The notes: generated from the sequence alone by a model not told the origin. A DNA stretch of 7,390 nt from a virus (IMGVR_UViG_2695420478_000017:1-7390); one strand, 5' to 3'; shown: positions 2,229-5,556, counted from the first letter of the stretch. Program-made: numbers and translations.

Positions 2229-2909
2229 ATGACACCGGACATTATCCTGCAGCGTACCGGGATCGACGTGAGAGCTGTCGAACAGGGGGATGATGCATGG
2301 CACAAATTACGGCTCGGCGTCATCACCGCTTCAGAAGTTCACAACGTGATAGCAAAGCCCCGCTCAGGAAAGAAGTGGCCTGACATGAAAATGTCCTACT
2401 TCCACACCCTGCTGGCTGAGGTTTGCACCGGTGTGGCTCCGGAAGTTAATGCTAAGGCGCTGGCCTGGGGAAAACAGTACGAGAACGACGCCAGAACCCT
2501 CTTTGAGTTCACTTCCGGCGTTAATGTTACTGAATCCCCGATCATCTATCGCGACGAAAGTATGCGCACCGCCTGCTCTCCCGATGGTTTATGCAGTGAC
2601 GGCAACGGCCTTGAACTGAAATGCCCGTTTACCTCCCGGGATTTCATGAAATTCCGGCTCGGTGGTTTCGAGGCCATAAAATCGGCTTACCTGGCCCAGG
2701 TGCAGTACAGCATGTGGGTGACACGAAAAGATGCCTGGTACTTTGCCAACTATGACCCGCGTATGAAGCGTGAAGGCCTGCATTATGTCGTGGTTGAGCG
2801 GGATGAAAAGTACATGGCGGGTTTTGACGAGATGGTGCCGGAGTTCATCGAAAAAATGGACGAGGCACTGGCTGAAATTGGTTTTGTATTTGGGGAGCAA
2901 TGGCGATGA
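2229..2909 (+). CDS. exo: Exo (Red-alpha) 5'-3' dsDNA exonuclease, 226 aa
   Basis: Translation [50 protein letters not shown]...[10 protein letters not shown] matches lambda Exo with a few substitutions; SD AGGTGG upstream. Confidence 0.93.
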
Positions 2910-3088
2910 AGCATCCTCACGATAATATCCGGGTAGGTGCGATCACTTTCGTCTACTCCGTTACAAAGCGAGGCTGGGTATTTCCCGGCCTTTCTGTTAT
3001 CCAAAATCCACTGAAAGCCCAGCGGCTGGCTGAGGAGATAAATAATAAACGAGGGGCTGTATGCACAAAGCATCTCCTGTTGAGTTAA
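2906..3088 (+). CDS. Small protein, lambda orf60a-like (60 aa from ATG 2906; alternative ATG at 2900 gives 62 aa)
   Basis: ORF directly after exo; ATG 2906 overlaps the exo stop as ATGA, and length and position match lambda orf60a as recalled. The sequence match itself is from memory and unverified. Confidence 0.55.
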
Positions 3089-3252
3089 GAACGAGCATTG
3101 AGATGGCACATAGCCTTGCTCAAATTGGAGTCAGGTTTGTGCCAATACCAGTAGAAACAGACGAAGAATTTCATACGTTAGCCACATCCCTTTCGCAAAA
3201 GCTGGAAATGATGGTGGCGAAAGCAGAAGCAGATGAGAGAGACCTGGTATGA
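3061..3252 (+). CDS. Small protein, lambda orf63-like (63 aa)
   Basis: 63-codon ORF overlapping the previous gene by 28 nt, same geometry as lambda orf63/orf60a; translation [63 protein letters not shown]. Confidence 0.6.
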   Translation: MHKASPVELRTSIEMAHSLAQIGVRFVPIPVETDEEFHTLATSLSQKLEMMVAKAEADERDLV

Positions 3253-3332
3253 CAACCACTGAATGCATTTTTCTGGCAGCGGGCTTCATATTCTGTGTGC
3301 TTATGCTTGCCGACATGGGACTTGTTCAATGA
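3249..3332 (+). CDS. Candidate small hydrophobic (membrane) peptide, 27 aa
   Basis: ATG 3249 overlaps the orf63-like stop (ATGA) and its stop TGA 3330-3332 overlaps the next ATG at 3329 (ATGA). Translation MTTTECIFLAAGFIFCVLMLADMGLVQ has a hydrophobic core consistent with one transmembrane helix. Too short for the ORF track. Confidence 0.35.
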   Translation: MTTTECIFLAAGFIFCVLMLADMGLVQ

Positions 3333-3544
3333 CACCTCAGCAAGAAAACGCCCTTCGCAGTATTGCCCGTCAGGCTAATTCTGAAATCAAAAAAGCCAGA
3401 CAGCAGTTTCCGGATAAAAACGTCGATGACATTTGCCGTAGCGTACTGAAGAAGCACCGCGAAACGGTAACGCTGATGGGATTCACACCGACTCATTTAA
3501 GCCTGGCGATCGGCATGTTAAACGGCGTCTTTAAGGAACGGTGA
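3329..3544 (+). CDS. Hypothetical protein, 71 aa (track ORF 3263-3544 trimmed to the coupled internal ATG)
   Basis: ORF in frame with track ORF 3263-3544; start at 3329 preferred because it is translationally coupled to the upstream peptide. Translation MTPQQENALRSIARQANSEIKKARQQFPDKNVDDICRSVLKKHRETVTLMGFTPTHLSLAIGMLNGVFKER. Product not recognised. Confidence 0.45.
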   Translation: MTPQQENALRSIARQANSEIKKARQQFPDKNVDDICRSVLKKHRETVTLMGFTPTHLSLAIGMLNGVFKER

Positions 3545-3566
3545 GCATGAAAAACAAAATCATCAT

Positions 3567-3590
3567 GGAGCTACAGGCTCCTTTTTTATT
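3567..3590 (+). terminator. Putative intrinsic terminator (ggagc / tacag / gctcc + TTTTTTATT)
   Basis: 5-bp GC-rich stem at 3567-3571 and 3577-3581, then six T at 3582-3587. Confidence 0.4.
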
Positions 3591-3642
3591 ATTCGCATTC
3601 ACCCTCAAGCGTATTAACCAACAATTCAGGGATTAATGAAAG

Positions 3643-3864
3643 ATGGCAGACATCATTGATTCAGCATCAGAAATTGAAGAATTACAGCGCAACACAGCAA
3701 TAAAAATGCGCCGCCTGAACCACCAGGCTATATCTGCCACTCATTGTTGTGAGTGTGGCGATCCGATAGATGAGCGAAGACGCCTGGCTGTTCAGGGTTG
3801 TCGGACTTGTGCAAGTTGCCAGGAGGATCTGGAACTTATCAGTAAACAGAGAGGTTCGAAGTGA
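3643..3864 (+). CDS. TraR/DksA-family C4-type zinc-finger protein (73 aa), likely RNA polymerase secondary-channel binder
   Basis: Translation carries CCECGDPIDERRRLAVQGCRTCASCQ, i.e. two Cys pairs (CxxC...CxxC) near the C-terminus with an acidic N-terminal segment, the layout of TraR-like phage and plasmid proteins. Confidence 0.7.
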   Translation: MADIIDSASEIEELQRNTAIKMRRLNHQAISATHCCECGDPIDERRRLAVQGCRTCASCQEDLELISKQRGSK

Positions 3865-4632: not shown

Positions 4633-5280
4633 ATGAGCGCTATAACCAAAGATCGACTACTGACAATCAAGCAGTGGCGCGAAACATACGGACCGGGTAG
4701 CAACGTTGTACTGCCAGCAGAAGAAGCGGAAGAACTGGCACGAATTGCGCTGGCATCACTGGAACGCGAACAGATTCGCCACGAGCATGCCAAATGGTCT
4801 GACTCCACATTTGGCTGCGTTGGCCCCATTGGTCCGCTGAAACATCTCTCAAAAGAGGCACTGGAAGCCGCAGCCGAACCAGACGATCTTAGCGAGTGGG
4901 CTGATATGCAGTTTCTGTTGTGGGATGCACAGCGCCGTGCTGGCATCAGCGATGCTGAAATTAACGTTGCTATGGAAGATAAATTGAAGATCAACATGGA
5001 GCGCCAGTGGCCTGAGCCAAAAGATGGTGAGCCTCGCTTGCACATTAAAGAACCCGGCAACTCTCCGGTAACTCCTGATGGTTGGATAAGCTGTAGTGAG
5101 CGAATGCCGGATACCAAAACAGCCGTTCTTGTTGCCAGGGAGTTTGACAGGAAAGGTGACTGGCGAATGAAATGGGCGACTTACATCCCGGGGCATCCTG
5201 ACGCTAATGATGGGTGGATAATTCCTGGTGCGTCGTGGAAACCGTCACACTGGATGCCGCTACCAGAGCCTCCCCTTTGA
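4633..5280 (+). CDS. Two-domain protein (215 aa): MazG-like all-alpha NTP pyrophosphohydrolase-like N-domain (DUF550-type) plus DUF551-like C-domain
   Basis: Track ORF 4471-5280 trimmed to ATG 4633, which has SD AAGGAGAG and sits 2 nt after the Ea22-like stop. N-terminal motifs (EEAEEL, HAKWS, STFG, LKHLSKEALE, EWAD, INMERQW) and the C-terminal WISCSERMPD ... SHWMPLPEPP pattern match those families as recalled. Confidence 0.6.
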   Translation: MSAITKDRLLTIKQWRETYGPGSNVVLPAEEAEELARIALASLEREQIRHEHAKWSDSTFGCVGPIGPLKHLSKEALEAAAEPDDLSEWADMQFLLWDAQRRAGISDAEINVAMEDKLKINMERQWPEPKDGEPRLHIKEPGNSPVTPDGWISCSERMPDTKTAVLVAREFDRKGDWRMKWATYIPGHPDANDGWIIPGASWKPSHWMPLPEPPL

Positions 5281-5376
5281 TAGCTAAGCTTATACATATC
5301 TTTTACATCAGCAATCTATTGTTAATCTCCAATCAATGTTACGTTGTCATCTCTCTCATGCTTTGGAGGTAGTGAT

Positions 5377-5556
5377 ATGTCTTGTCCAAAATGCGGTTCT
5401 GGAAATATTGCAAAAGAAAAAACAATGCGTGGATGGTCTGATGATTATGTGTGCTGCGATTGCGGATACAACGACTCTAAAGACGCATTTGGAGAGCGTG
5501 GTAAAAACGATTTTGTCAAAATTAATAAAGAACGCGAAGGCAACGAAAAAAGCTAA
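5377..5556 (+). CDS. Small zinc-ribbon protein, 59 aa (CPKCG ... CCDCG)
   Basis: Track ORF 5344-5556 trimmed to ATG 5377, which has a strong SD GGAGG at 5365-5369 (7-nt spacing). Two CxxC-type motifs: MSCPKCGSGN ... YVCCDCGYN. Confidence 0.55.
   Translation: MSCPKCGSGNIAKEKTMRGWSDDYVCCDCGYNDSKDAFGERGKNDFVKINKEREGNEKS

Follow-up and report, generated by a model that had tools for sequence, protein, structure and literature searches.

Inner-membrane proteins of fewer than 50 residues are known from enterobacteria (KdpF, 29 aa; MgtS, 31 aa; AcrZ, 49 aa; CydX, 37 aa), and bulk predictions have yielded small transmembrane genes in phage genomes. Type I toxins (TisB, 29 aa; DinQ, 27 aa; ShoB, 26 aa; Ibs, 18–19 aa) are expressed from a promoter of their own with a structured 5′ UTR, are paired with an antisense RNA and usually contain basic residues. 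In phage lambda, the early pL transcript encodes two small host-directed peptides, Kil and cIII, whose targets are FtsZ and FtsH. The exo–xis block of the same operon is described in reviews as comprising orf60a, orf63, orf61, orf73, ea22 and two ORFs from ribosome profiling (PMC8614690); a 27-codon ORF between orf63 and orf61, the subject of this work, is not in that list. In the account given in the same review, the ORFs that ribosome profiling of lambda (Liu et al. 2013) added in the block were just two, of 7 and 31 aa (PMC8614690). The region is non-essential for lambda growth according to CRISPRi mapping (PMC10695390).

Here we analyse this ORF in a 7,390-nucleotide stretch of viral DNA (IMGVR_UViG_2695420478_000017:1-7390; hereafter the window), whose + strand is the coding strand of a lambdoid pL operon. 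On balance, we consider it probable from the sequence comparisons below that the 84-nt stretch at 3249–3332 is a genuine small gene of the pL (exo–xis) early operon, translated, coupled, selected and bridging orf63 and orf61. The features of the window are as follows.

782–840, + strand: cIII thermoregulator RNA (Rfam search)
795–959, + strand: cIII
within 802–1071, + strand: kil
after kil and before bet, + strand: gam
1447–2217, + strand: bet
2229–2909, + strand: exo
2900–3088, + strand: orf60a/DUF1317
3061–3252, + strand: orf63/DUF1382 (PF07131, E 7.8e-31; lambda orf63 translation); its stop TGA overlaps the peptide ATG
3235–3241, + strand: Shine–Dalgarno (SD)-like GAGAGAG, 7–13 nt upstream of the peptide ATG (−5.6 kcal/mol)
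3249–3332, + strand: 27-codon ORF encoding MTTTECIFLAAGFIFCVLMLADMGLVQ, 27 aa (identical in lambda; substitution pattern; codon usage)
3263–3328, + strand: disputed 22-codon N-terminal extension of the 93-aa Orf61 (933W L0070, Phi24B vb_24B_7c), in the orf61 frame; judged non-coding
3264–3311, + strand: hydrophobic core CIFLAAGFIFCVLMLA, codons 6–21, a predicted membrane-embedded helix (hydropathy)
3329–3544, + strand: orf61 proper, 71 aa, the form called by PGAP; start codon overlapping the peptide stop, with a weak SD of its own
3389–3394, + strand: six-A run (seven A in reference lambda)
3541/3547–3636, + strand: 29/31-aa ORF (29 aa from ATG, 31 aa from GTG)
3643–3864, + strand: orf73/TraR-DksA
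downstream of orf73, + strand: Ea22-like gene, several accessory genes, xis, int

Some of these neighbours merit a comment in their own right. The 71-aa protein is often named "cell division protein ZapA" in RefSeq, which looks like over-annotation, given that ZapA in Pfam matches it with only 16.1 bits (E 0.014), short of the 23.8-bit cut-off. The second small ORF (3541/3547–3636) sits in the orf61–orf73 gap, is annotated in some phage records, shows a weak codon-position bias (8, 8, 11) and contains a terminator-like hairpin, GGAGCTACAGGCTCC, with a T-run at 3567–3581. Further downstream, the variable part of the exo–xis block carries an accessory gene for a dATP/dGTP pyrophosphohydrolase fused to DUF551 (4633–5280), and a small zinc-finger protein is encoded at 5344–5556, with sub-threshold similarity to Lar restriction alleviation.

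The 27-codon ORF is joined to both neighbours in the same way. Its ATG (3249–3251) overlaps the orf63 stop TGA (3250–3252) as ATGA (ggtATGAcaa), and its stop TGA (3330–3332) overlaps the ATG of the 71-aa gene (3329–3331) as ATGA (caATGAcac). An earlier reading of the sequence alone had described a short ORF with an ATGA overlap at each end, and its coordinates and translation, MTTTECIFLAAGFIFCVLMLADMGLVQ, were reproduced here. The coupling that it proposed on both sides is borne out as far as the 4-nt overlaps are concerned, the upstream one being kept behind orf63 variants, a Dam methylase and a DndB-like gene. Shuffling the 26 internal codons left the frame open in 28% of cases; multiplying this by 1/3 for the frame match and by ~0.27 twice (once for the A that must precede the upstream TGA, once for the A that must follow the downstream ATG), we infer that chance would produce a double-overlap open frame at this spacer length with a probability of roughly 0.7%.

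The ORF is widespread and unevenly annotated. The sequence-only reading had called it unannotated, which holds for lambda (NC_001416), for phages 21, 434, 1W, 4A7, phi345 and Lambda_ev110 and for current RefSeq E. coli; it does not hold for GenBank E. coli drafts and a UniProt entry, in which the exact peptide appears as a "hypothetical protein" (UniRef A0A0A2SGE8_ECOLX; at least 981 contigs). Two variants of the peptide are also found among the "hypothetical protein" entries of GenBank drafts, and some gene-calling pipelines have called the ORF as a gene. Conservation in related prophages, the check that the same reading had suggested, is found: the ORF is present in lambda and in 176 phage records at 92.6% peptide identity or more, with the ATGA junction kept. 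Of 5426 complete E. coli genomes, 3349 contain the surrounding 601 nt, which places the ORF-bearing segment in about 60% of them, often in multiple copies.

In lambda NC_001416, the identical peptide ORF lies at complement 30925–31008, with one synonymous difference. The idea that a lambda-like gene order breaks down at this point is therefore wrong: the window is collinear with lambda here (92% mean column identity, a figure lowered by a 53-column end overhang), and it is the annotation that differs, not the genes. The 20-nt overlap of orf63 and orf61 that was named along with this idea is correct for the lambda annotation (31005–31196 versus 30839–31024). There, orf61 is annotated from an ATG inside orf63, in a frame that crosses the whole peptide ORF, and in Stx phages the annotated 93-aa Orf61 begins in the same frame at the ATG at 3263. 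Because both are annotated across it in another frame, the peptide ORF has been hidden in lambda. The annotated N-termini of lambda orf61 and Stx-phage Orf61 (PHROG 26061, PHROG 303) accordingly cover the peptide DNA in a reading frame different from that of the peptide.

Several observations bear on where Orf61 begins. The window has a T at 3260 where lambda has a G, which creates a TGA in the frame of the lambda orf61 start, and this start is cut off by the TGA in most haplotypes as well. At the other end, the seventh A of lambda (window 3389–3394; lambda about 30,866) shifts the frame of orf61 and gives rise to the truncated 61-aa annotation; the lambda product is thus a truncated hybrid, in which the extra A puts the last two thirds of the 71-aa protein out of frame. 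In the PGAP annotation, and in the curated records of phages 21 and 434, orf61 starts at 3329 (71 aa), which leaves a 76-nt "gap" after orf63. A single-sequence AlphaFold prediction of the 93-aa form gave pLDDT values of 40–52 for residues 1–20 and of 73–91 from about residue 21. This break agrees with the published modelling of Phi24B Orf61, in which only residues 24–93 model consistently and residues 1–23 were left out of the model statistics (PMC8614690). Across 3263–3328, no coding constraint was found in the orf61 frame (substitutions at codon positions 17, 7, 7; omega 0.7–2). These results favour the peptide frame for 3249–3332, with Orf61 starting at 3329. The accepted orf61 start is probably wrong, and the first 22 residues of the 93-aa Orf61 and the first 32 of lambda orf61 are most likely an annotation artefact.

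To compare substitution patterns, we collected 315 related loci (IMG/VR, GTDB, phage and E. coli records), which gave 190 distinct haplotypes spanning 2900–3864. Observed counts were compared with the synonymous fraction expected over all possible single changes to obtain p-values. Counts are given below for codon positions 1, 2 and 3, then as synonymous to non-synonymous changes.

27-aa frame, all 31 events: 7, 7, 17; 15:16; omega about 0.33–0.38
27-aa frame, events in at least 2 haplotypes: 3, 4, 14; 13:8 (p 2e-4 to 7e-4); omega about 0.2
27-aa frame, events in at least 4 haplotypes: 2, 1, 10; 10:3; omega about 0.1
orf61-extension frame, all events: 17, 7, 7; 9:22; omega 0.7–2, not significant
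71-aa gene, all events: 10, 15, 31; 26:30; omega 0.33–0.43
orf73, all events: 17, 15, 35; 35:32; omega 0.26–0.33
orf63, all events: 14, 14, 18; 16:30; omega 0.54–0.69

Purifying selection is thus shown to act in the 27-aa frame and not in the orf61 frame. Over the whole range of tests, omega in the peptide frame was about 0.1–0.38, with a synonymous excess at p 7e-5 to 7e-3 and a third-position excess at p 0.002–0.01; the test rests on 31 events because all sequences are 95–99% identical. Constraint in this frame equals that of the 71-aa orf61 and of orf73 and is stronger than that of orf63 and orf60a. There were no indels in the peptide ORF among the 190 haplotypes, and the common polymorphisms (ORF positions 9, 12, 33, 72 and 81) are all synonymous third positions. 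Codon usage, scored as log-odds against the genes of the window itself, was +0.165 in the peptide frame and −0.25 in the other two frames, compared with 0.27 ± 0.18 for in-frame windows of known genes.

Residue changes are mostly terminal (T3A, E5K, A21S/V, D22G/N, V26I/A). Positions 9–20 are nearly invariant, the only changes being A11V (in locus L011), G12D/V and F15L, all in rare haplotypes. Disruptive events comprise an ATG>ATA change in two loci that share one extended haplotype (L073 and L086) and a Q27stop in one locus. The sole radical change in the core, G12D, occurs in L194/L195 (E. coli 52F4 and TUM1887), prophages with pseudogenised exo and/or ea22, and is consistent with relaxed selection in decaying prophages. 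As a separate observation, orf63 (3061–3252), an accepted gene, shows almost no third-position excess and weaker constraint than the 27-aa ORF; it has been described as encoding a structured protein (PMC6213356).

Initiation signals were compared by the energy of the duplex with the 3′ end of 16S rRNA. The peptide ATG at 3249 scores −5.6 kcal/mol, the 93-aa start at 3263 scores −2.8 kcal/mol (no SD) and the 71-aa start at 3329 scores −3.9 kcal/mol (weak SD). In the window, orf61 proper begins with ATG; in 32 of the 190 haplotypes A3329G makes this codon GTG, which leaves the peptide sequence unchanged (CAA>CAG). Shuffled versions of the RNA fold more stably than the RNA itself (z +2.4), which has neither a sequestering hairpin nor a stable fold, and Rfam gave no match in the peptide region. 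No promoter-like site was found on either strand at 3200–3400, nor any promoter or terminator inside 3249–3332. A programmed frameshift fusing the peptide to Orf61 was also considered and was rejected on inspection, since a slippery heptamer is absent at GUUCAAUGA. Taken as sequence signals, these features would fit serial termination–reinitiation from orf63 to the peptide and on to orf61.

The locus is mosaic. In 19 distinct contexts a phage Dam methylase stands in place of orf63, and the break falls exactly at the peptide ATG; the methylase ends in ...GGGAGGCTGCATGA, which preserves the 4-nt overlap with that ATG. One such Dam methylase module (PF05869) lies at the orf63 position of L127 (167–724), where the peptide gene is kept, and in this class GGGAGG precedes the same peptide ATG (−10.3 kcal/mol). 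Where orf63 is present, its C-terminus varies (ERDLV, ERNQV, ERDQV, ERDPA, ERELA) and the ATGA is retained in all cases. The junction thereby persists behind three upstream genes, namely orf63 variants, the Dam methylase and the DndB-like gene. In a further class of 8 distinct sequence contexts (the L030 class), orf63 and the peptide are both missing, with an unrelated 250-aa gene in their place; the 71-aa gene still begins at the ATG used elsewhere and has a GAGG of its own (−5.6 kcal/mol), its product belonging to a 344-member cluster (P0010). This class indicates that 3329 is a real start and that the peptide gene is a separable module; that the 71-aa gene functions here without the peptide was counted against a peptide gene. 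The 250-aa protein itself (L030, 741–1493) has no Pfam or PADLOC match.

One locus has lost the peptide by another route. In Escherichia sp. E1V33 (L011, 1435–1716), a 14-nt deletion after ATGACAA joins the peptide start and its strong SD to the orf61 frame, giving a fusion product of 93 aa downstream of a DndB-like gene (PF14072) instead of orf63. Because the deletion fuses its ATG to the orf61 frame, the peptide must be dispensable in this locus; read in the peptide frame, most of its other differences are still synonymous. This type of junction was not found in any complete E. coli genome, apparent matches being ordinary copies.

The predicted product has 16 uninterrupted hydrophobic residues (C6–A21) flanked by E5 and D22, and a GRAVY of 1.62. 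On the Hessa scale the sum is −3.5 for the best 15-mer, about 0 for 19–21-mers and a borderline −0.14 for the 21-mer CIFLAAGFIFCVLMLADMGLV, which includes D22. The peptide contains no K, R or H, and hence no basic flanks that would conform to the positive-inside rule; a complete absence of basic residues is atypical both for membrane-anchored small proteins and for type I toxins. The single transmembrane helix proposed by the sequence-only reading is therefore only partly upheld: the segment is hydrophobic and of helix length, but positive-inside flanks are absent and the core, at just 16 residues, is short enough to leave stable single-pass insertion uncertain. The near-invariance of the hydrophobic core, with variation confined largely to the ends, makes membrane association likely. 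Judged from hydropathy, the peptide is probably membrane-associated, and a classical positive-inside single-pass topology is not supported.

Nothing significant was found for the peptide in Pfam, NCBIfam, PHROGs or PADLOC, and tblastn against phages and plasmids returned only near-identical lambdoid copies and lambda contamination; no homologues were found outside Escherichia lambdoid phages. A GTDB scan with the 71-aa protein gave Escherichia and many lambda spike-in contigs in unrelated genomes, and a search of 5.8 billion proteins with the same query gave E. coli alone, apparent matches of 50–80% identity being frameshifted reads. Among the GTDB loci, L012–L025 are low-coverage contigs of up to about 48 kb that match laboratory lambda exactly, its extra A included; they occur in genomes of Shewanella, Pseudomonas, Oceanobacillus, Kitasatospora and others, and are most likely lambda DNA contamination of assemblies.

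Compared with KdpF, MgtS, AcrZ and CydX, the peptide is alike in size, in its single hydrophobic segment of helix length, in having been missed by pipelines and in the operon-internal position that is often seen among them; it differs in that it has no sequence similarity to them, lacks basic flanks and is restricted to Escherichia lambdoid phages. By analogy, it may work like other small hydrophobic operon-internal peptides. With lambda Kil (47 aa) and cIII (54 aa) it shares the early N-antiterminated pL transcript, small size, a non-essential accessory character and packed or overlapping genes, but these two are soluble or amphipathic, whereas the peptide is much more hydrophobic and unrelated in sequence. 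The sequence-only reading had raised a role as a host-directed inhibitor or toxin as a possibility, and the peptide does resemble type I toxins in length and hydrophobicity. By contrast with their own transcription unit and antisense RNA, neither of which is found here, the peptide ORF lies inside the pL operon as one of its cistrons, coupled on both sides, and no antisense promoter-like site overlaps it; by architecture it is not a type I toxin. Like the 31-aa ORF of lambda (30620–30715; window 3541/3547–3636), it is an unlisted small ORF in an inter-cistronic gap of the same block; the two are unrelated, and the 31-aa ORF has a GRAVY of about 0, is not overlap-coupled, has a weaker codon-position bias and carries the terminator-like hairpin. 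In lambda the 31 codons of this ORF are counted from an ATG. It matches the 31-aa ORF added by profiling and is probably the one cited in PMC8614690 as "orf2313".

Four other explanations were weighed. The 27 codons might be translated just to carry ribosomes from orf63 to orf61, the peptide itself being functionless and degraded. The two 4-nt ATGA overlaps would serve such a relay equally well, as would the weak SD of orf61 (−3.9 kcal/mol) set against the better GAGG (−5.6) of the L030 class, in which the peptide is missing; the orf61 start also tolerates ATG>GTG in 32 haplotypes, and the peptide has no homologues or family and is lost by deletion in L011. A relay, however, needs only an open frame, yet amino-acid changes are avoided (omega about 0.1–0.3) and the core is almost invariant. 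Moreover, a 76-nt relay is unnecessary, as orf61 could abut orf63 directly, in the way that orf63 overlaps orf60a. We regard this explanation as unlikely. That the long Orf61 is right, starting at the ATG at 3263 or at the lambda ATG inside orf63 with the 27-aa frame accidentally open, is improbable. It has the annotation or discussion of 933W, Phi24B, phi345 and lambda in its favour, together with PHROG 303, which is built on the long form, and in L011 a strong SD and ATG do read into the orf61 frame. The ATG at 3263 is invariant too, which is explained by the peptide codons E5 and C6. The variable sites of the extension nevertheless fall at first codon positions (17, 7, 7) with omega 0.7–2, no SD precedes 3263 (−2.8), and the lambda start is cut by a TGA in the window and most haplotypes; PGAP and the annotators of phages 21 and 434 chose the 71-aa start, at whose ATG the gene of the L030 class also begins, and the extension has low pLDDT. 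The annotated form of orf61 was, in addition, insoluble when over-expressed (PMC6213356).

An identity of 95–99% would preserve an 84-nt ORF in any case, and 28% of shuffles are open, so that the ORF might be open by chance in a slowly diverging non-coding spacer, with nothing translated between orf63 and orf61; current RefSeq makes no call here, and the profiling study, in the account cited above, is not reported to list the ORF. Against such a spacer stand the third-position excess (p 0.002–0.01) and the synonymous excess (p 2e-4 to 7e-3), codon usage that is coding-like in the peptide frame only, the absence of any indel in 190 haplotypes, and ATGA junctions that are kept behind three upstream genes, one class having a strong SD besides; the joint chance of a double-overlap open frame is about 0.7%. 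We hold a chance ORF to be very improbable. A 61-aa ORF on the minus strand (3316–3131) was considered as the source of the third-position pattern for its shared wobble register, being open in nearly all loci with third codon positions that coincide with those of the peptide frame. It was rejected on its worse fit: common events are 4 synonymous to 4 non-synonymous, versus 7:2 for the sense frame, there is no third-position bias over the 117 nt inside orf63 (6, 10, 7), C3314T removes its ATG in the Dam-methylase class, the polymorphic wobble sites 3320 and 3329 fall outside it, and no promoter-like site faces it, antisense as it is to the pL transcript. An antisense gene is hardly credible as an explanation.

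We therefore return to the reading of 3249–3332 as a small coupled gene, for which translation, coupling, membrane location and any target of the peptide are what we infer from the features above. Ribosomes that end orf63 at the UGA at 3250–3252 would restart on the overlapping AUG at 3249, aided by the moderate SD GAGAGAG, and those ending the Dam methylase gene would restart likewise in the other mosaic class. The 27 codons would then be translated and termination at the UGA at 3330–3332 would occur directly on the AUG or GUG of orf61 proper, such that the peptide gene would pass ribosomes to orf61, whose own SD is weak. The 27-residue product would most likely be found within the inner membrane or on its surface soon after induction or infection, and may act there on a host or phage partner.

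This reading bears on published work. The delta-orf61 mutants of lambda and Phi24B were made by replacing the annotated orf61 sequence (PMC6213356). As the replaced sequence spans the whole 27-codon ORF in lambda and codons 6–27 in Phi24B, these mutants also removed the peptide gene. The peptide sequence was not found in the literature searched, nor in the small-gene and Ribo-seq supplements for EHEC Sakai, and any profiling footprints over it would have been assigned to the annotated orf61, which overlaps it.

Should the peptide gene prove real, the gene maps of lambda and Stx phages would need a new gene, and Orf61 would be corrected to a shorter 71-aa protein, a clean three-helix domain. 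The published delta-orf61 phenotypes, two-hybrid interactions and insoluble products would then have come from a wrong or compound construct. A long, mis-started ORF that hides a small coupled gene from annotation and from the assignment of ribosome-profiling reads is a failure mode of general relevance. The interest of the case lies chiefly in its location in lambda itself, the reference temperate phage, whose exo–xis block influences the induction of Shiga-toxin prophages, and in the confounding of published orf61 work. It is possible, though we propose it only tentatively and with some doubt, that lambda and Stx phages make a 27-residue, acidic-flanked membrane micropeptide early and that part of the delta-orf61 phenotypes belongs to it; those concerned would be the effects on lysis–lysogeny, prophage induction and adsorption published for delta-orf61.
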